The translations under genes and the position numbers were made by a program. From contig JALHSQ010000055.1 of assembly GCA_022865885.1 (NCBI GenBank), forward strand, positions 61,618-125,617: a stretch of 64,000 nucleotides of DNA, read 5' to 3'. Numbering within the stretch: the first letter of the stretch is position 1; the number at the start of each line of letters is the position of its first letter. This DNA is from Candidatus Bathyarchaeota archaeon. Lineage in GTDB: Archaea; Thermoproteota; Bathyarchaeia; Bathyarchaeales; Bathycorpusculaceae. The notes under the pieces were generated by a model, which saw nothing but the letters and a program-made list of their open reading frames with translations, was not told the DNA's origin and ran no database searches. Positions 28,740-45,758 of the stretch are shown here, in pieces.

Positions 28740-29618
28740 TTGAAATTTGGCATCGCAACACGAAATGAGAACTCTTGGAGTTCAACTCAAATCCGAGAAG
28801 CACTGGCCAAACGCCGCATTTCAAGCGAATGCTTTTGCCTTTCTCGCCTAGTTGCCCGTGTCGGATGTGCGCCTTACTTCGAAGCTGCTAACGTTGACGT
28901 CCAGAAAGAGCTAGATGCTCTGTTGATTCGTCCAATTGGTCGAGGATCCGTAGACGAACTGGTTTTCAGAATGGATGTCCTTTACCGCCTTCAACGTCTG
29001 GGTCTATACGTCATAAATTCTCCTGAAGCAATTGAACATTGTGTCGATAAGTATGATGTCCTCGCAATCTTGGAAGAGAATGGTGTTCCCGTCCCACGCA
29101 CCGCAACTACAGAAAACGTCAATGAAGCAATGAATGCTTTTTGTGAACTGGGCGGGGATGTTATAGTTAAACCACTCTTTGGCAGCAGAGGAGTAGGCGC
29201 AACGAGAGTAAGAGACAAAGATGTGGCTTCTACTGTCTTTAGGGCCATAACCTTTCATCATGGCGTGGTTTACCTTCAGGAATTCGTGAATCATGGTCAT
29301 TCAGATATTCGAGCCTTTGTAATTGGCAATCGTGTCATTGCAGCGATGAGGCGTATGGCAGATTGCTGGAAAACCAATTATAGCCAAGGAGCCCATCCAG
29401 CCCCAATTGAGCTTGACAAAATGATCGAAGGTCTATCCATCAAATCCGCGGAACTTGTTGGTTGCAAGATTGCTGGCGTAGATATTCTTGAAAGCCCGAA
29501 AGGTCCGGTTGTCGTTGAGGTTAACAGTCAGCCAGGTTGGCGAGGTCTGCAATCAGTTTCACGTGTTAATGTTGCTGATGAGATCGTTGACTTTGTTTTG
29601 TCGGAATTGAAGAAGTGA
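28740..29618 (+). CDS. RimK-family ATP-grasp alpha-L-glutamate ligase (MptN/CofF-like)
   Basis: ATP-grasp core IVKPLFGSRGVGATRV. About 290 aa. Sits in a methanopterin/C1 neighbourhood. Confidence 0.65.
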   Translation: MKFGIATRNENSWSSTQIREALAKRRISSECFCLSRLVARVGCAPYFEAANVDVQKELDALLIRPIGRGSVDELVFRMDVLYRLQRLGLYVINSPEAIEHCVDKYDVLAILEENGVPVPRTATTENVNEAMNAFCELGGDVIVKPLFGSRGVGATRVRDKDVASTVFRAITFHHGVVYLQEFVNHGHSDIRAFVIGNRVIAAMRRMADCWKTNYSQGAHPAPIELDKMIEGLSIKSAELVGCKIAGVDILESPKGPVVVEVNSQPGWRGLQSVSRVNVADEIVDFVLSELKK

Positions 29619-30409
29619 GCATCATGCTGAAGATTGATATTGTGAGAATCGACGTTCCATCTAGGAAAACATGCGAAGTAATCGACTATGTGGCTGAAGA
29701 AATACCGTTACAGATCGTCATAAACAAGACTCCCTACGCTACTCTTCGCTGTTCACCATCAAACCTGAAGGAACTGGCAATCGGTCACCTTCTGTCAGAA
29801 GGAATCCTGAAATCGGTTGACGAAATCGAAGGGCTGTCTTTGAGCGAGGAAGAAACAGTCTGCAGGGTCAAACTAAAGAAAGACATCAGCGCAGATAAGA
29901 GGTTGAGGCTCTCAAGGTCCTTTTCACGTGTAATCTTCTCAGCTTGCGGTGGTCGCTTGCCCTTTCGATCTGTGGGAAGACAACCCAAGATTCAGTCTGA
30001 TTTGATTGTCAAAGCTGAAGTGATAATGCAAGGTGTTGGTCGTCTTAACTCGGATGCCAAGATTTTCAGGAAAACAGGCGGAGTGCATGTTGCCGCAATG
30101 TATCTGAGTGATGGAACTCTCAAAGCTCTAGCTGAGGATGTCGGTAGGCACAATGCGGTTGACAAGGTGATTGGTGCCTGTGCTTTGGATAATACTGCTT
30201 TCAGTAGATGTTTTCTTGCTTTAAGCGGAAGATTGTCAGGGGACATAGTTCTCAAGGCAGCCAGAGTAGGTTTGCCAATAGTGGGCTCCTTGGCTGCGGC
30301 GATAGATTCAGGCATAGCAGTTGCAAAGAACGCTCACTTGACGTTGATAGGATTTGTGCGTGGAAATCGCATGAATGTTTACAGTGTGCCTGAGAGAATC
30401 TCTTTTTGA
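29615..30409 (+). CDS. fdhD: FdhD-family sulfurtransferase (formate dehydrogenase accessory protein)
   Basis: LAIGHLLSEGIL motif, catalytic SACGG loop, C-terminal LSGRLSGDIVLKAARVGLPIVGSLAA. Confidence 0.8.
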   Translation: MSIMLKIDIVRIDVPSRKTCEVIDYVAEEIPLQIVINKTPYATLRCSPSNLKELAIGHLLSEGILKSVDEIEGLSLSEEETVCRVKLKKDISADKRLRLSRSFSRVIFSACGGRLPFRSVGRQPKIQSDLIVKAEVIMQGVGRLNSDAKIFRKTGGVHVAAMYLSDGTLKALAEDVGRHNAVDKVIGACALDNTAFSRCFLALSGRLSGDIVLKAARVGLPIVGSLAAAIDSGIAVAKNAHLTLIGFVRGNRMNVYSVPERISF

Positions 30410-30469: not shown

Positions 30470-30964
30470 CTAAGTGTAGATGTAGAGCAGATCTCTTTTG
30501 AGCAGTGTGAAGATTATTATCGCGCTAACTATGAACTCTGGAACCAAGTATGTTGCGTTGTAGGCAGCTGAGTAGGCGACGACGTTCCAGCCTTCCCAAG
30601 CGTATTGTCCGAAGAAAACGATGCCTGATATGAAGTGGCAAATGAATCGACCAAGGATTCCTACTCCAACCCCTATGACGGGTCGCTTTTGGAAGGCGCC
30701 TGCCAAGCCCAAGGCGCCGAAAGCTAAGGGGTAGTCAAGCAGGATTTGTGTGGGATAGTAAATGTCTCCAGAGATGATCATGTGTACGAGTCCGTAAACT
30801 ATTCCTGCTTCTACTCCCCATCTGGGGCCTCGTCTCAATGCAAACCATAGTAGAGGGACCATACTTGCGATAGTTATGGTTCCGCCTTCTGGTAGTCTCA
30901 AGAAGGGAAGGTACAGTTTGCTTAGTATGTAGAGCACGTTTGCTAGGGCGATAAACACTATCAT
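30470..30964 (-). CDS. thiT: ThiT/YuaJ-like thiamine transporter (ECF S-component-type)
   Basis: LPEGGTITIASMVPLLWFAL resembles the YuaJ family. A TPP riboswitch sits immediately upstream on the same strand. Confidence 0.65.
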   Translation of the reverse strand: MIVFIALANVLYILSKLYLPFLRLPEGGTITIASMVPLLWFALRRGPRWGVEAGIVYGLVHMIISGDIYYPTQILLDYPLAFGALGLAGAFQKRPVIGVGVGILGRFICHFISGIVFFGQYAWEGWNVVAYSAAYNATYLVPEFIVSAIIIFTLLKRDLLYIYT

Positions 30965-31020
30965 TTCTGCTAGTATCTTCGATTCGACTGTGCTAGAAAC
31001 ATTGGGTCGTTTTATTTTTT

Positions 31021-31110
31021 TTTCCCACCGCCAGTATTATCTGGTTCAGGTTCTGTGGGTCGACAGTGTTCAACTGTCCTCTCAGCCGGGTCATTTTCCC
31101 AGCTCCCCTA
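31021..31110 (-). promoter_or_regulatory. TPP (THI-box) riboswitch in the 5' leader of the ThiT-like gene
   Basis: Minus-strand RNA GGGGAGCUGGG..GGCUGAGAGG..ACCCACAGAACCUGAACCAGAUAAUACUGGCGGUGGGAAA matches the THI element consensus (CUGAGA; ACCUGAUCUGGAUAAUGCCAGCG). Confidence 0.8.
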
Positions 31111-31300
31111 AACCTAGAGAGGGTAATTGCCCTGTCGGTATAAAAGCGTTTTGAGTGATACTTCATAATGTTACACCTTCTCTCTGGCATCAAGCAGCTC
31201 TTGTTTCTCATCATCTCTTTTAGCGGGTGCGCTTGTTTCATTAAACTTTAAATCCTTGGTAGGGTTGATTTGTTAAACTACAATATGGAGGAAGAATGAG

Positions 31301-32701
31301 ATGAACTTCGATTCAGTGACGATAGCGATGCTTGCAGGCATAGCTTTCTTGGCTGTCATTATTGTGATTGTCATCATTTCAAGAAGCTACACTGTTGTCA
31401 GAGCGCATGAAGCTCACATCGTCGTCAGAAGGAAGGGCAGAAAAGTATATTGTTCTAGGGAAGGGCAAAGAGCTGCCTATTGGTTTGTTCCTTATCTAAT
31501 GCAAAGATCGATCTTGCCGCTGGAGAACATTAAGCTCATGATCCCGAACGTTCCTTTGAGAGACATCGATATGGCAAAGTTTGCGGGTGACGTCAGGTGT
31601 TGGTTGAACATAGAGAATCCTGATCTTGCTGCAGAGAAGCTGGGCAAAGTGGAAACTGAAGAGAAAACGGGTTTTCCTGCGATACAGGCTGACGTCAAGG
31701 ACCTGATTGAAGCCGTTGCAAGGAACTCTTCTATGAAGATGGACGTCGTCAACATTATGAAGGACAGAGCCAAGTTCAGCCAGACAGTGAAGGACGAAGT
31801 GGCTCCTATCCTGAAGGCTGAATGGGGAATCAAGATTGCCGGTTTGGAAGTCATCTACTTCAGAGACATTGAGGGCTACACTATTATCAAGGATATTGAG
31901 GCTAGACAGGCAAAACTGATCGAGACGGAGACAAGGAAGCAGTTGGCAGACTATGAGAAGAACGCAGCTATAGTTGAGGCAATCACTAATCAGGAGAAAG
32001 AGACACAGAAGGCTCAGGCAGAAGAGGCATACAGAATCAGACAGATTCAGAAGGATCAGGCTATTGGGCAAAGCGATCAGCAGAAACAACAAAACATCGC
32101 CCAAGCTACTCAGGAGGCAAACAAGCAAACCGTAGAGGCTAACAGAATCTTGACTGTGGGAAATGCTGAGATTGAGAAGCAGGCTGCCGTAACCAAGGCC
32201 GAAGGAGAAGCCCAATCCAACGTAAGAAGAGGAGAAGGAACAGCTGCGGTCACAAAGCTGACGGGTTTTGCAGAAGCAGACGTGAACAAGCAGAAGCTCT
32301 TTGCAGAGGCAGAGGGAACTGAAAAGAAAGCCTTAGCCCTGAAGCAATATAATGAAGCGGGTCTATCCTTGGAAGTCATCAGAGCAAACCAAATCATCAA
32401 GCAGGCACAGTTTGCTGCCCTTGGCGAGGGACTGAAAGTCGCCAGAATCAACTTGGTCACAAGCGGTGAAAGCAACATTCTAGGCATTCCTGTGAGTGCA
32501 GAGATGGGAGCAGACCTTGGAGCTATGCTCATTGCGTTGCAGAATCAGGGAATAGACGTCAACGATCTTCTGAGAAAACTGCCAATATCTGAGACAGCTA
32601 AACTGGCAATAGCTGCAAAAGCAGGAATCATCATAGCCAAGGAAGGAACAAAGGAAGCAACCAAAGAATCCCAACCCAAAGGCAAGAAGGGATCTGAATG
32701 A
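31301..32701 (+). CDS. SPFH/band-7 flotillin-like protein with long EA/Q-rich coiled-coil tail
   Basis: N-terminal TM, SPFH core, C-terminal repeats (QKAQAEEAYRIRQIQKDQAIGQ). GGAGG RBS 10 nt upstream. Confidence 0.8.
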   Translation: MNFDSVTIAMLAGIAFLAVIIVIVIISRSYTVVRAHEAHIVVRRKGRKVYCSREGQRAAYWFVPYLMQRSILPLENIKLMIPNVPLRDIDMAKFAGDVRCWLNIENPDLAAEKLGKVETEEKTGFPAIQADVKDLIEAVARNSSMKMDVVNIMKDRAKFSQTVKDEVAPILKAEWGIKIAGLEVIYFRDIEGYTIIKDIEARQAKLIETETRKQLADYEKNAAIVEAITNQEKETQKAQAEEAYRIRQIQKDQAIGQSDQQKQQNIAQATQEANKQTVEANRILTVGNAEIEKQAAVTKAEGEAQSNVRRGEGTAAVTKLTGFAEADVNKQKLFAEAEGTEKKALALKQYNEAGLSLEVIRANQIIKQAQFAALGEGLKVARINLVTSGESNILGIPVSAEMGADLGAMLIALQNQGIDVNDLLRKLPISETAKLAIAAKAGIIIAKEGTKEATKESQPKGKKGSE

Positions 32702-33235: not shown

Positions 33236-35695
33236 ATGAATGCGTTGCCTAAAGAGTTCGATGTTCTGTCGATTGAGAAGAAGTGGCAGAGTAAATGGGA
33301 AGAGATGGGCATTTACCATTTTGATAGGGAGGATAAGACGAGTCAGACGTTCTGCATCGATACTCCTCCGCCCTATCCTTCGGGCGATTTTCACATGGGA
33401 AACGTGTTAAACTGGTCATACTTTGATTTTGTCGCTAGATTCAAGCGGATGAGGGGATTCAACGTGTATTTCCCTCAGGGTTGGGACTGCCATGGTCTAG
33501 GCATTGAAGTTCAAGTCGAAAAGGAGCATAAAATCAGGAAAAGGGAAATGTCGCCTAACGAGTTCAGGAAACTGTGCGAGCTGATGGTTGAAAAATACAT
33601 TGCGATAATGAAAGAGGGGATTGTGCGTCTTGGCTGTAGCACTGATTGGACGACAGAATATCGAACCATGAATCCTGACTATTGGCGACGGACTCAATTG
33701 AGCTTCATACTTCTGCATAAGAAAGGCTTCATGTATCAGGGCACGCACCCAGTGAATTGGTGCCCGCGATGCGAGACAGCGATAGCAGATGCTGAAGTGA
33801 ACTATGAGGCGCATGAAGGCACGCTTCACTACATACGGTTCCCATTTGAGAAGAGCAAAGAACACCTTTTGATAGCGACGACACGTCCAGAACTCATACC
33901 CGCATGTGTGGCCGTTGCTGTATGTCCCACCGACGCTCGATTCAGCAAGTTTGCCGGACGGAAAATCATGGTGCCCATCATAGATCGCGCTGTTCCAATA
34001 ATCTTGGATGAGACAGTTGATCCAACCTTCGGCACAGGAGTCGTGATGATTTGCACTTACGGAGACAAGGCAGACGTGCGAACGGTACTTACGCATAAGC
34101 TTCCATCGAGGATAATACTAACCGAGAATGGTAGAATAAACGAGAACGGAGGAAAATACGCGGGATTGACCACAAGCGAAGCGAAGAAGGCAATAGTCAA
34201 CGATCTGGAGCAAGAGGGGCTGCTTGAGAAAACTGAAAAGCTCAAACAGGAAATTGGTTCATGCGATAGGTGCGAAACGCGTGTAGAGATTCTTGAGCTT
34301 GAGCAATGGTTTATGAAAACACGGGTTCTGACGGAGAAGGTTGAGAAGACGGCAAACGAAGTCGTGTGGTATCCTGACTACATGAAAACACGTTTGGTAG
34401 ACTGGGCACGCTCGCTTGACTGGGACTGGGTGATAAGTCGGCAACGCATTTTCGCTACGCCAATTCCGGTATGGTACTGCAAGAACTGTGGCGAAGTGCT
34501 TTTGGCTGAGGAGAGTTGGGTTCCGATTGACCCGAAAGCTGAAAAACCTCACATTGATAAGTGTCCCTCGTGTGCAGGCTCCGAGTTCACTCCAGAGACA
34601 GATGTTTTTGACACGTGGATGGACTCGTCAATATCATGTGCGGTTCATGCTGGCTGGCCTGACCGCAAAGACTGGAGAAGACTGTTTCCAGCAGATCTGC
34701 ACCCATCAGGCATAGACATCATACGAACTTGGGCATACTATCTCATGGTAAGGCACTTGGCACTATTCGATGAAACGCCGTATAAGATCTGTTTGATCAA
34801 TGGCATGGTTTTGGGTGAAGACGGCAGAAAAATGAGCAAGTCGCTCAAGAACTATGCTGCTGCTCCAGAAGTTCTGAACAAGTATGGTGCTGATGCCGCT
34901 AGACAGTGGGCTGCAGGTGGCGGTGCAACTGGATCAGACATACCTTTCCGCTGGCCAGACGTTGAATATGGCTGGCGTTTCCTAATCAAACTGTGGAACG
35001 CTGCAAGATTCGTGAGCAGTCTCTTGGAGGACTTCACGCTGAGAGAAGACGTGAAGTACCCGCTTCAACCATTGGACAAGTGGATTCTAAGCAAGACTGA
35101 AAGGCTCACTGAGAAAGTTACAGAAGCCTTTGACACATGCCAATTCAATATAGCATTGGAGGAGACTCGCAACTTTGCATGGCACGTTTTCTGTGACAGC
35201 TACATCGAGGCTGTGAAAGATAGGCTGTACAAACCGGAATTCTACGGTGAAGAAAAGAGAAGAGCAGCACAATACACTCTCTATACAGTACTATCTCGGA
35301 TTCTGCAGTTGCTTGCTCCAATAACGCCGCATGTGACAGAGGAAATCTATCAGATAATGTACGCTACAGAAGGAAAGTGCAAGAGCATACATCTATTGGC
35401 TTGGCCAACACCAGATGAAAAATGCGTGGATGAAGAGGCAGAAAATCACGGTGACCTCGTAATAGCCGTAATGAACGAGATTAGAAGGGAAAAATCTGAA
35501 AAACACCTCCCACTAAACACGCAGATCAAGAAACTGACGATCTACGCAGAAGGAAAGGATTCGAAATCGATTAAGGAGAGTAGAGAAGACATAGCTGGAA
35601 CATGCAAGGTTGCAGATTTTCAAGTTATATCTAAGAAGGGTGAAGGCAGAGAAGTAAAGCTCCACGAGAACATTCGCTTTGTCGCTGAATATTGA
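33236..35695 (+). CDS. valS: Valyl-tRNA synthetase
   Basis: HIGH-region PPPYPSGDFHMGN, KMSKS, CP1 editing block IATTRPELIPACVAVAVCPTDARF (ValRS-like ATTRPET..AVAV.P.D.RY), ISRQRIFATPIPVWYC. Confidence 0.8.
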   Translation: MNALPKEFDVLSIEKKWQSKWEEMGIYHFDREDKTSQTFCIDTPPPYPSGDFHMGNVLNWSYFDFVARFKRMRGFNVYFPQGWDCHGLGIEVQVEKEHKIRKREMSPNEFRKLCELMVEKYIAIMKEGIVRLGCSTDWTTEYRTMNPDYWRRTQLSFILLHKKGFMYQGTHPVNWCPRCETAIADAEVNYEAHEGTLHYIRFPFEKSKEHLLIATTRPELIPACVAVAVCPTDARFSKFAGRKIMVPIIDRAVPIILDETVDPTFGTGVVMICTYGDKADVRTVLTHKLPSRIILTENGRINENGGKYAGLTTSEAKKAIVNDLEQEGLLEKTEKLKQEIGSCDRCETRVEILELEQWFMKTRVLTEKVEKTANEVVWYPDYMKTRLVDWARSLDWDWVISRQRIFATPIPVWYCKNCGEVLLAEESWVPIDPKAEKPHIDKCPSCAGSEFTPETDVFDTWMDSSISCAVHAGWPDRKDWRRLFPADLHPSGIDIIRTWAYYLMVRHLALFDETPYKICLINGMVLGEDGRKMSKSLKNYAAAPEVLNKYGADAARQWAAGGGATGSDIPFRWPDVEYGWRFLIKLWNAARFVSSLLEDFTLREDVKYPLQPLDKWILSKTERLTEKVTEAFDTCQFNIALEETRNFAWHVFCDSYIEAVKDRLYKPEFYGEEKRRAAQYTLYTVLSRILQLLAPITPHVTEEIYQIMYATEGKCKSIHLLAWPTPDEKCVDEEAENHGDLVIAVMNEIRREKSEKHLPLNTQIKKLTIYAEGKDSKSIKESREDIAGTCKVADFQVISKKGEGREVKLHENIRFVAEY

Positions 35696-40925: not shown

Positions 40926-41915
40926 ATGCTGAATGAGGCTGTGGTTCGAATGATTCCGATCGAGATTTCTTCTGTCAAAAAGTCCTATGGCGATCTGAAG
41001 GCAGTTGATGGGGTTTCGTTTTCGGTTAACGAGGGGGAAGTCTTCGCTCTTGTCGGCCCGAATGGCGCAGGGAAGACAACTCTAATAGAGATATTGGAGG
41101 GTTTACGAAAAAAGGACGAAGGCGCCGTCAAGATTTTGGGCCTTGATCCATGGGAAAATGGCTATGTGCTTCATAGAAGAATCGGGGTCATACCTCAAAA
41201 CTTCACTTTCTTTGACAAGGCAAATCCGACGGAAGCGGTGAAATACTACGCGGATCTCTTCGACGTCAAAGTGGATCCGGATGAGATCCTGAAGGAAGTT
41301 TTGCTGGAGGATTCGACTGGTGTCCTTTTCGAGAATCTTTCAGGAGGGCAAAAACAGAAGATGGGGCTTGCCCTCTCACTCGTGAATTCTCCTGAGCTTC
41401 TTTTCCTTGATGAACCGACTACGGGGCTGGATCCGACCGCGAGAAGGGCGATCTGGGACGTGATAAGAGGCTTGAGGAAAAAACGCAAGACGGTGATCTT
41501 AACCACTCATTATCTCGACGAGGCAGAGCAGCTTTCGGATAGAGTCGCAATCATGAATCATGGGCATATCGTAGCGATGGGGACTTCGGATGAAATCATT
41601 GCGGCTCACGGTTCAGGGGAAAGGCTTGAGATTCACGGGTCCGAGGAGTTGGCTACCTATGTTAGGGCGAACACGAATCTGAAGGTTGAGTACAGAGGCA
41701 AGGGTTTGATCAGCATAGCACTTACTCAAAAAACTGACGCACTGGCAGCCTTGGCGGCTGCTGAACAGTCGGGACTGGACTGGGGCGAAATTCACACGCG
41801 CCGTGACAGTTTGGATGACGTGTTTGTTAAACTGGTGAGCGGCACCATCGACGCGCACGGTGAAATTACAGTTGAGAACAATAATGATGGTTCGCCTGAT
41901 AAAAGGAGGTTATAG
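40926..41915 (+). CDS. ABC transporter ATP-binding protein (ABC-2/DrrA-like exporter)
   Basis: Walker A GPNGAGKTT, signature LSGGQKQ, Walker B LLFLDEPTTGLD. Confidence 0.9.
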   Translation: MLNEAVVRMIPIEISSVKKSYGDLKAVDGVSFSVNEGEVFALVGPNGAGKTTLIEILEGLRKKDEGAVKILGLDPWENGYVLHRRIGVIPQNFTFFDKANPTEAVKYYADLFDVKVDPDEILKEVLLEDSTGVLFENLSGGQKQKMGLALSLVNSPELLFLDEPTTGLDPTARRAIWDVIRGLRKKRKTVILTTHYLDEAEQLSDRVAIMNHGHIVAMGTSDEIIAAHGSGERLEIHGSEELATYVRANTNLKVEYRGKGLISIALTQKTDALAALAAAEQSGLDWGEIHTRRDSLDDVFVKLVSGTIDAHGEITVENNNDGSPDKRRL

Positions 41916-41920
41916 GAAGA

Positions 41921-43015
41921 ATGGTCAGTTTGAAAAGAATTTTGGCTGACCTTCGCTTATTTGGTCGCGGATATCTGAGAAACAGAGTCGGACTGTTCTT
42001 TGGTCTAATATTCCCCGTGATTCTCATTGCTATTTTCGGGGCTATTTTTTCAGGAGGCTCCTCCGGAACGATAAAGGTCTACGTTCAAAACCAAGACACT
42101 GGCCAAATCTCCACATCATTCGTAAATGCGATTAACGGTACAAGCACAGTTCGCGTGGAATTAGTGAGTGTTTCTGAAAACTTCTCGCAATATCTCTCGG
42201 ATCATTCTGCATCCGACGGGATAATTATCCCTGCAAATCTCTCTTCGAACTACATGGCTGGAACACCAGTCAACGTGACGGTCTATGGGAACCCCTCACA
42301 AAGCTCGAGTGCCATCGTAAGCGGAACAGTCACAGGAGTCATAAATGCGTTCAATCTGCAACGTTACGGCGGTTCACCAGTCATCGGCATAAGCCCGACC
42401 ACGGTCAACGCTCAGATCTACAAATACATCGATTTTCTAATTCCAGGACTCATCGGTTTTTCAATACTCGTGAGCCCCATGTTTTCTCTAGTAAACATAT
42501 CCTCGGAATACAAAAAGATAAAGCTGTTCAAGCAGTTATCCTTAACGCCTATGACCAAGATCGAGTGGCTATTATCCAAAGTCCTTTGGTACATATTCTT
42601 GTCAACGCTTTCTTTCTTGCTGATGGTAGCTGTGGGAGTTTTTGCTTTTGGCGCATATATCGCGCTGACATTGTGGCTAGTACCGTTCCTTATCCTCGGA
42701 CCGATGCTCTTCTGTTCATTGGGTATGCTGGTTGGAACCGTGACCAAAAGCACAGAGACGGCCAGCGTGATCGGAAACGTCATAACATTTCCAATGATGT
42801 TTCTTGCTGGTACATTCTTCCCCATTAGCCTAATGCCTGCCTACTTGCAATCGTTCGCACATGTGCTGCCGCTGTTCTACATAATCGAGGGACTTAATGC
42901 AGTTATGATATACGGCAACTACGGACAGGCAGTGCTAGACGTTGTCGTTGTCATGGCAATTACGATTGTTGTCTTTGTAGCTGCAGCGAAATTGTTCAAG
43001 TGGAGAGAAGACTAG
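41921..43015 (+). CDS. ABC-2-type transporter permease
   Basis: Six TM helices, ABC-2 C-terminal block FPMMFLAGTFFPISLMPAYLQ. Directly downstream of the ATPase. Confidence 0.8.
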   Translation: MVSLKRILADLRLFGRGYLRNRVGLFFGLIFPVILIAIFGAIFSGGSSGTIKVYVQNQDTGQISTSFVNAINGTSTVRVELVSVSENFSQYLSDHSASDGIIIPANLSSNYMAGTPVNVTVYGNPSQSSSAIVSGTVTGVINAFNLQRYGGSPVIGISPTTVNAQIYKYIDFLIPGLIGFSILVSPMFSLVNISSEYKKIKLFKQLSLTPMTKIEWLLSKVLWYIFLSTLSFLLMVAVGVFAFGAYIALTLWLVPFLILGPMLFCSLGMLVGTVTKSTETASVIGNVITFPMMFLAGTFFPISLMPAYLQSFAHVLPLFYIIEGLNAVMIYGNYGQAVLDVVVVMAITIVVFVAAAKLFKWRED

Positions 43016-44254: not shown

Positions 44255-44350
44255 GGGCCCGTAGCTCAGTAAGGATAGAGCACCGGACTTTTAAGCTGGA
44301 TGCTAAGCAAGGAAATCCGGGGGTCCCGGGTTCAAATCCCGGCGGGCCCG
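44255..44350 (+). tRNA. tRNA-Lys (anticodon UUU) with a 21-nt intron at the canonical 37/38 position. CCA not encoded
   Basis: Acceptor GGGCCCG/CGGGCCC. D-arm GCTC..GAGC. Anticodon stem CCGGA/TCCGG with loop CTTTTAA. The 21 nt between the loop and the 3' stem half (approx 44295-44315) is the intron. T-arm CCGGGTTCAAATCCCGG. Confidence 0.85.
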
Positions 44351-45758
44351 CTTCCATTCTCTTGGAAAGAACATGGGCTAAGAAATTCTGAACTAGTTTT
44401 CATTGTTATGAGCTTCAAGACAGTCTACAGTGGAACACAGAGCTTGTTATGTGGTTCTGTTTATGTTTAAGCCTTGGATTCTGGTCTCGCCTAGATCAAT
44501 TGATTGCCTATCTTCCTGGAGTCTCTTTCGCGTGCAAGCCTATCTGGAGCGTTGTCGTTCGAGTCTGGCGAGTTTTTTCTTCTTCCGTTTCCCCTCTCTT
44601 TCCTTCTTTTTCTGAGGCTGGAATTTTTGCTCTCTTGATTCATGTCTTTCGATGCTCAAGTGATTGTCTCCTTATTCACGTATTAAAACGGAGACTCTAA
44701 TCTCTTTTTCTCAAGACAGCGTGTGCTTCACTCTAGCGCCTTCAAGTCTGCGTTGTTAGCGCACGTGAAGGGCTAACTAGGATTGCATGTGCGTTTAGTC
44801 GCTATACGACATTCTCATCTTTCTCTTCCGTCTCTTTCATGCCAATTTCCCTGACTTTCGCCAATCCTTCTATCAACGCCATCTCCAATTCAATGACATA
44901 CACGTTTCCATATTCTTCTACCATTCTTTCAATAACTCCTAACACTTCTTGTTTCATTCTCTCCATTCGTTCCAAGTTTAGTTCTACAGTCATGATCGCC
45001 AACGTTTCACCCCCCCTTCTTCAGTCCATCTTTCTTCTTGGCCAGACTAAAGTTGCGCACAAGCCCTTAAATCATTCCACACTGGTGGGGCGACTTGCTT
45101 TGTTCTTCTGCGATGGTTCTTCTTCAGTGAATTCTGAATTCATCATGCTTATCTAGTCCGACGCGACTTGAATTCTATAGGTCCGGATAGATATGTCCCC
45201 GAGCGACAAGTCTGACGAATACTTGAGTTTCATGACCAGTTTCATGCAACATAGTAAAGGTCTTGGCGACGTTATCGCACGTTTACGCAAAGCCTTCGGG
45301 AATTCCTCTTCAAATGAAAAAAGCAACAAGATCAAGGACATTGAGAAGCGATATTCAGCCATTCAAGTTGACATCTTGAGTTTGATAACCTCAACATCTT
45401 CATCTCCAACGCCAAGTGGTCGAGATGAAGGCTTTCGTGGTCCTCCGGTGATAATAAGGTGCAGGCAATGGGAAGACTTCAAAGCCCAAGCAACCAACGC
45501 GAATACGGTTTCATTTCTGTACAAGAGCGAAGAACGATCTTTTCAGGTGGATGCTCTCAAGGAAGGGCGAGTCTACACCTTCAGTGGTCAATTACCCAAC
45601 GATCCTCATCTTTTGAGAATCTGGCTGTCAAAGGAGCTGAACGTTGAAGAGAGCAGAGTCCTAGAAGGTATCCTAGCAATAGGCTAGGAAAGAACGCCAC
45701 AGTGTGATGTAGCTTGCTTCAATAGTGCGACCGATTGGTCTTCCTTTCTTCTCTCTCT

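Follow-up and report, generated by a model that had tools for sequence, protein, structure and literature searches.

The E. coli thiM-type TPP riboswitch is a translational OFF switch that works by sequestering the Shine-Dalgarno site. In other bacterial TPP riboswitches, described as using "direct translation attenuation," the ribosome-binding site is concealed within the aptamer core itself, at its purine-rich 3′ end (Barrick and Breaker 2007, PMC2258182), and these riboswitches occur mostly in Actinobacteria and Cyanobacteria (PMC2258182). The thiT TPP riboswitch of L. lactis, RSthiT, depends on a U-stretch (PMC8862789). TPP riboswitches have also been reported in archaea (PMC3020362). For Bathyarchaeota or Bathyarchaeia, no riboswitch description was found in the searchable literature. 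The element analyzed here lies directly upstream of a thiT gene in a 64,000-nucleotide stretch of Candidatus Bathyarchaeota DNA, hereafter called the window. Bathyarchaeia are an uncultured, globally abundant archaeal class. The architecture of the window element most likely matches a category already described in bacteria, and the element most likely regulates ThiT, as in Firmicutes. We propose that it probably shuts off thiT translation directly, with one strand of its own P4 helix serving as the ribosome-binding site and without a separate expression platform.

When the 64-kb window was searched with cmscan against 4227 Rfam families, only two matches exceeded the gathering score, RF00059 (TPP) and one tRNA. 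The TPP riboswitch aptamer lies on the minus strand at 31119..31006 and scored 57.3 bits (E 1.3e-8), compared to a gathering score of 54.3, with the match covering model positions 1-105 of 105. An earlier note on this DNA had proposed a TPP riboswitch on the minus strand, to be sought with the RF00059 covariance model, and the search returned a significant, full-length match on that strand. The motifs quoted in the note, GGCUGAGAGG at 31087..31078 and AACCUGAACCAGAUAAUACUGGCGGUGGGAA at 31052..31022, are on the minus strand, and its interval of 31021..31110 takes in the core of the aptamer, with the P2 G-run (31108) at one end and GGGAA (31022) at the other. The CUGAGA, ACCUGA, GCG, and GGGA motifs are all present. 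The archaeal setting that had been suggested also held. An identical ThiT protein is named Candidatus Bathyarchaeota, the relatives are Bathyarchaeia MAGs, and the window carries a tRNA-Lys (anticodon UUU; 44255..44351, plus strand) with an intron of ~22-26 nt after the anticodon loop. Introns at this location are an archaeal hallmark. On these three grounds, the host was taken to be a Bathyarchaeia archaeon.

Structural alignment of 33 archaeal aptamers with RNAalifold independently recovered helices P2, P3, P3a, P4, and P5. On the minus strand of the window, P2 pairs 31108..31106 with 31059..31057 and encloses P3, the CUGAGA motif, and P3a (31057..31108). P3 pairs 31104..31098 with 31090..31084, the CUGAGA pyrimidine-sensor motif, evident from the sequence and the alignment, occupies 31085..31080, and P3a pairs 31078..31074 with 31066..31062. 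The pyrophosphate-sensor arm (31025..31050) consists of P4, in which CCU at 31050..31048 faces UGG at 31027..31025 with a U-U mismatch (31048:31027) in the window, and P5, which pairs 31044..31041 with 31034..31031. With the structure fixed, P2-P5 were 97.6-100% paired across the 33 aptamers, and 13 pairs were altered on both sides. Compensatory changes were found in P3, P3a, and P5; for example, P5 pair 85:94 is AU in 22 of the sequences and GC in the other 11. The covariation score was 0.206 compared to 0.120 for shuffled alignments, and none of 500 shuffles reached 0.206. When the helices were slid out of register, pairing was found in at most 56% of the cells in every register.

Of the P1-P5 fold suggested in the earlier note, P2-P5 were thus confirmed, whereas P1 appears weak. 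In the Rfam register, P1 was paired in only 50.9% of the cells across the 33 aptamers, and a search for complementarity specific to the cognate 5′ and 3′ flanks found none, with 885 of 2000 permutations doing as well. A mini-helix of the UUU/AAA type is plausible as the sole P1 in the window. Set against the RF00059 family, the window element shares the full-length match, the motifs, the covariation-supported P2/P3/P3a/P4/P5, and a thiamine transporter gene downstream. It differs from the family in its P1, which is very short, A/U-rich, and without covariation support, in the U-U mismatch in P4, and in its Bathyarchaeia host. Judged from its sequence, it is a bona fide RF00059 member with a weak P1 and an ordinary member of a well-known RNA family.

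The arrangement is widely conserved. A scan of species-representative genomes yielded 36 Bathyarchaeia thiT loci, the next-nearest relatives being Clostridia. In 32 Bathyarchaeia genome loci, an RF00059 aptamer scoring 55-74 bits immediately precedes thiT, and 45 or more orthologous loci, including further metagenome loci, scored above the gathering score. Because the TPP element recurs in this position in 32 loci, the window match is far beyond chance. Every Bathyarchaeia locus with enough upstream DNA had the aptamer except for one (L031), in which no TPP match was found in the ample DNA upstream of the Bathyarchaeota thiT gene. A tRNA gene lies just downstream in that locus. The description of TPP riboswitches as sparse in archaea does not extend to this lineage, in which they are the rule upstream of thiT. 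A second TPP aptamer was seen on one Bathyarchaeota contig (L034, 1183-1290; 65.9 bits). The 431-aa open reading frame (ORF) downstream of it (1431-2726) is presumably ThiC-like, as judged by its sequence motifs, and the ORF preceding it is one that we take by eye to be ThiL/AIR-synthase-like.

The gene downstream of the window aptamer is thiT, encoding an ECF-type thiamine S-component (minus strand; conserved frame 30470..31015; annotated start ATG 30964..30962, 164 aa). The ThiT/YuaJ-like transporter predicted in the earlier note was confirmed. The ORF at 30470..30964 matched Pfam Thia_YuaJ (PF09515) with an E value of 3.4e-42 and 145 bits compared to a cut-off of 25.8. It also matched the solved structures 3RLB/4MES (E about 6e-18) in alignments that include the motifs HF..G, QYAW.GW, and AYS.A.N, and a 100% identical protein (P0001) carries the name energy-coupled thiamine transporter ThiT of Candidatus Bathyarchaeota. 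For annotation purposes, the substrate of this transporter is thiamine.

The distance between the aptamer and the gene requires a different reading. A gap of about 55 nt had been noted, which is correct for the annotated ATG at 30964 only and not for the conserved frame, which reaches 31015. Most ThiT homologues are 181 aa long, not 164, and start with M-K-Q-T...E-T-K-I-L-A-E. The window frame is open upstream of ATG 30964 and reads I-K-R-P-N-V-S-S-T-V-E-S-K-I-L-A-E-M, and this in-frame translation (IKRPNVSSTVESKILAEM) is collinear with that of relatives (MSKTAVSSAVETKILAEM). At the position of the relatives' ThiT start, the window has an ATA codon (31015..31013, minus strand), a candidate near-cognate start that sits 7 nt after the aptamer's GGGA. 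Of 34 genome loci, 28 (about 80-85% of relatives) have ATG, GTG, or TTG in frame 5-10 nt past GGGA. Among 70 unique compact-type loci, 54 had such a codon within 16 nt, almost all at 5-10 nt with a mode of 5-7. Between GGGA and the start codon, relatives have an A-rich spacer alone, and the 5′ untranslated region would thus consist essentially of the aptamer. What had been described as an A-rich linker and ORF-free leader is mostly conserved ThiT coding sequence plus the spacer between the Shine-Dalgarno site and the start. Because of this, and with ATA as the start codon, the riboswitch would abut the translation start rather than lie 55 nt away from it. The ThiT start in the window's clade would accordingly be annotated beside the aptamer. 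A hairpin around ATG 30964, tried on a 186-nt fold, was rejected: its z-score was only -2.37, 6 of 200 shuffles folded equally well, and the frequency of the minimum free energy (MFE) structure was 0.007.

The window is not alone in lacking a canonical codon at the start position. ACG was found there in L003, in L015/L099, in L020/L030, in the P0018 lineage (L156-L161, six independent assemblies), and in L162-L166/L089/L134, and ATA was found in the window and L155, in L034 (2937-2939), and in L097. No other noncanonical codon was seen at this position among the loci compared. In all, about eight lineages, the window included, have ACG or ATA where the start codon would be, 3-8 nt after GGGA; the frames are open, and each aptamer checked scored above the gathering score. 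Such codons beside intact aptamers are mildly novel, and a search of the literature for ACG starts in archaea found nothing relevant. Low-level initiation at ACG or AUA beside a strong Shine-Dalgarno site would fit these observations. We tentatively suggest, at somewhat less than even odds, that the compact TPP riboswitch of Bathyarchaeia drives such initiation, with the start codon lost and the aptamer, GGAGG, frame, and N-terminal peptide kept in these roughly eight lineages. If this is true, it would represent natural, recurrent ACG/AUA initiation in an archaeon, possibly as a way to hold a vitamin transporter at very low levels under riboswitch control, and the N-terminal peptide (M/I)KRPNVSSTVESK would be expected, or TKEKLAVQ in the P0018 lineage. 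The recurrence of ACG and ATA is in any case a small, concrete lead on archaeal start-codon usage. The N-terminal extension of the ACG lineages has 4 synonymous and 4-5 nonsynonymous variable sites, a rough and underpowered count. In some ACG lineages (L162-L166, L089, and L134, with GGGAaATGAACCACG, and L020, with GGGAgaATGTACGAGCGGTAA), an out-of-frame ATG 2-3 nt after GGGA marks the start of a 4- to 8-codon mini-ORF overlapping the in-frame ACG.

A rather less likely reading, though one with some weight, is that ThiT of the window starts at ATG 30964 and has 164 aa. The 51 nt before it would then be an untranslated linker, with the riboswitch acting at a distance or uncoupled from the translation start. 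This ATG is the first canonical in-frame start, and NCBI annotates the 164-aa form. Forms of this length also come from gene callers in several lineages, and family members with short N termini exist (P0060, MAEAIVF.., and P0082), which suggests that the N-terminal tail may be dispensable. A recent shift to the downstream Met, which the window has, is conceivable. However, the 17 codons upstream of ATG 30964 are open and collinear with VSS.VE.KILAE, with differences that are mostly synonymous or conservative, and ATG 30964 has no Shine-Dalgarno site (-1.1 kcal/mol) comparable to those of other window genes. Moreover, the aptamers of the ACG/ATA lineages are intact (56.6-63.2 bits), an unexpected outcome had the aptamer lost contact with the start. 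L003 and L030 offer no further canonical in-frame start until >125 nt downstream, by which point the reading frame is within the membrane domain.

The Shine-Dalgarno-like sequence for a start beside the aptamer is the 3′ strand of P4, identified by alignment. It reads GGUGG in the window (31025..31029, minus strand; 9 nt before the codon at 31015), GGAGG in most relatives, and GAAGG in a minority, and in relatives it is located 7-12 nt from the start. GGAGG also precedes the starts at 41921, 31301, 11976, and 9600 in the window by 8-11 nt. The window is alone in having T at 31027, where the other 32 of the 33 aligned sequences have A (column 100), and it is also the only one with a broken P4 pair, in which U-A becomes U-U. 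In the exact window sequence, the Shine-Dalgarno site and P4 are both weakened by GGUGG. An independent assembly with an identical ThiT (L155) is identical to the window over the 84 nt upstream of ATG 30964 except at 31027, where it reads GGAGG; a contig end stops this comparison within P4/P5. The U is therefore a strain-level single-nucleotide polymorphism or a consensus error, whereas the ATA, which the two assemblies have in common, is real.

These window-specific features might also be taken to mean that the riboswitch is a decaying relic in this genome and that thiT is expressed constitutively or poorly. The window aptamer is among the lowest-scoring orthologues in Rfam (57.3 bits, compared to 55-74 in relatives), and it combines the only broken P4 pair in the 33 sequences with a weakened Shine-Dalgarno site and ATA in place of ATG. 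We consider decay improbable, as the GGAGG of L155 reduces the broken pair to a polymorphism or an error, all other conserved aptamer positions are intact in the window, the score is still above the gathering score, and both ATA and ACG recur elsewhere beside intact aptamers.

A putative archaeal promoter completes the arrangement. A TATA-like box, CTTTTATA (31139..31146, minus strand), ends 30 nt upstream of the P2 G-run. A similar A/T-rich TATA-like block, read from anchored sequences of relatives, precedes P2 by 27-32 nt in every related locus. Because of this spacing, the transcript probably begins near 31115, which would place its start only a few nucleotides before the aptamer. The aptamer folds into P2/P3/P3a and P4/P5, as shown by the covariation among relatives. 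The purine-rich 3′ strand of P4 (GGAGG; GGUGG in the window) is predicted, from its geometry and from the use of GGAGG elsewhere in the genome, to be the ribosome-binding site. With TPP bound, P4 and the adjoining short P1 would be locked, the Shine-Dalgarno site and the start region would be hidden, and less transporter would be made. With TPP absent, the Shine-Dalgarno site would be exposed, perhaps helped, though this is tentative, by pairing of AGGUUU in the leader with AACCU of the P4 5′ strand. In thermodynamic folds of the ligand-free ensemble, the Shine-Dalgarno 5-mer was indeed 0.86-0.97 unpaired in the window's clade. In the window's lineage, either ATA would initiate with low efficiency or translation would begin at the ATG 51 nt downstream. 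Whether the window belongs to the direct-attenuation class hinges on whether ATA initiates, because the window has ATA together with GGUGG. Several observations temper the assignment of the P4 strand as the ribosome-binding site. First, the Shine-Dalgarno-like sequence at P4 is partly forced by the fold, because AGGGA is universal in TPP aptamers. Second, some bacterial relatives with distant starts (L037, L039, and L040) also have GGAGG. Third, some compact loci have GAAGG.

The candidate anti-P4 (antisequestor) strand is the 5′ leader UAGGUUU (31110..31116, minus strand), nominally the 5′ strand of P1, which is complementary to GAACCUG at 31053..31047. The ligand-free MFE structure pairs this leader with 31053..31047 in place of P4. 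The duplex between the leader and the P4 5′ strand averaged -4.57 kcal/mol compared to -2.15 kcal/mol for shuffled leaders (n = 82), and its core pairs were formed in 21-26 of 33 sequences. No covariation is possible for this helix because the partner segment is invariant. No such helix is present in the second compact sub-clade. The leader is conserved as (A/U)AGGUUU. We hypothesize that AGGUUU may act as an anti-P4 switch strand.

It is also conceivable that the riboswitch acts on transcription elongation, on termination, or on mRNA stability instead of translation initiation. Firmicute thiT riboswitches use a U-stretch terminator (PMC8862789), and how natural archaeal riboswitches work has hardly been examined by experiment, with the T. 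kodakarensis fluoride riboswitch as the sole case (PMC8241225). This explanation appears remote, as the start codon of relatives comes a mere 5-10 nt after the aptamer, a search for T-runs of at least 5 on the mRNA strand from the promoter to +120 of the coding sequence found none, and a sister Bathyarchaeia clade has an explicit Shine-Dalgarno-sequestering hairpin. Translational control by the P4 strand remains the probable mechanism.

That sister clade shows a second thiT design. Its loci (L118, L120, L123, L126-L132, L135, L136, L139, L140, L148, L150, and L153; NCBI-named Bathyarchaeia) scored 59-74 bits in Rfam and have a canonical GCGUAGGGA core and a 4-bp P4. They carry a platform of ~100 nt in which a conserved hairpin, ACCUUC(A)...(U)GGAGGU, sequesters the full GGAGGUGA located 9 nt before a GUG start. 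Because of this sequestration, Shine-Dalgarno masking is evidently how Bathyarchaeia control thiT. Translational OFF control by masking of the Shine-Dalgarno site is common to the E. coli thiM type and this second clade (L118, L130, L135, and others), and probably also to the window. The former two use a separate anti-Shine-Dalgarno/Shine-Dalgarno hairpin ~100 nt downstream (ACCUUCA...UGGAGGUGA), whereas the window would use the aptamer's own P4 strand. Bathyarchaeia have two contrasting thiT designs, one with the Shine-Dalgarno site embedded in the aptamer and one with a separate Shine-Dalgarno hairpin, and the two yield testable predictions on Shine-Dalgarno-dependent initiation and riboswitch control. 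In the second clade, the aptamer 5′ flank, UGAAGGUACC, is complementary to the anti-Shine-Dalgarno sequence GGUAACCUUCA and is a possible antisequestor.

The similarity to the bacterial direct-attenuation class is closest in the archaeal relatives of the window: the aptamer core would supply the ribosome-binding site at its 3′ end, a start codon comes a few nucleotides later, and there is no platform. The differences are the archaeal host, a promoter position that would make the aptamer the first element of the mRNA, and the start-position codon, which is ATA in the window and ACG or ATA across the eight or so lineages. We know of no description of an anti-P4 leader such as the one considered here for the bacterial cases. 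Compared to L. lactis RSthiT and the thiT leaders of Clostridia (L036-L074), the aptamer class and the transporter family are the same. In the Clostridia leaders, by contrast, a separate AAGGAGG and a T-run immediately precede the ATG, 40-180 nt past the aptamer, according to a spacer analysis that is approximate because the core or start was mis-picked in a few loci. Unlike these terminator or dual types, the window version is without a platform, AAGGAGG, or a U-run. The Clostridia ThiT proteins (L036-L074) are the closest nonarchaeal relatives, at 44-52% identity, and three of the loci (L037, L039, and L040) have an aptamer core, CCGGCGGAGGGA, identical to that of one Bathyarchaeia sub-clade. 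This shared core hints that riboswitch and transporter may have moved together between Clostridia and Bathyarchaeia.

Recognition of the aptamer also settles a gene call. The 82-aa ORF at 30993..31241 (minus strand), which overlies the promoter and the aptamer, had been dismissed in the earlier note as spurious, and the comparison with relatives agrees. By tblastn, similarity was limited to residues ~40-79, which are encoded by the aptamer, and was interrupted by in-frame stops and frame switches, and the N-terminal half, which covers the TATA box and promoter region, was not conserved. That this ORF is a real small protein is hardly credible, although its frame is open and ATG initiated; its only Pfam match, to malate synthase, is below threshold (E 0.0027; 17.2 bits compared to a cut-off of 26.4). 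Public ThiT calls of 207-213 aa (P0058, P0099, and P0116) read upstream through the riboswitch (e.g., ...LRGQLN...AGGG...) and are the mirror image of this error. For annotation, both the 82-aa ORF and the 207- to 213-aa ThiT calls that read through the aptamer should be dropped.

The surroundings of thiT contain several recognizable genes. An FdhD/NarQ-family gene (29615..30409, plus strand, in the window) converges on thiT in the relatives examined (among L155-L166). A divergent SPFH/Band-7 gene (31301..32701, plus strand) with a clear GGAGG Shine-Dalgarno site lies on the other side, and beyond it is a class-I aminoacyl-tRNA synthetase of 819 aa (33236..35695, plus strand). In the P0018 lineage, a class-I aminoacyl-tRNA synthetase is directly upstream of thiT. 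The sole ABC-type ATPase-like ORF in the window, with Walker A GPNGAGKT and the signature LSGGQ, is at ~40950..41915 on the plus strand.
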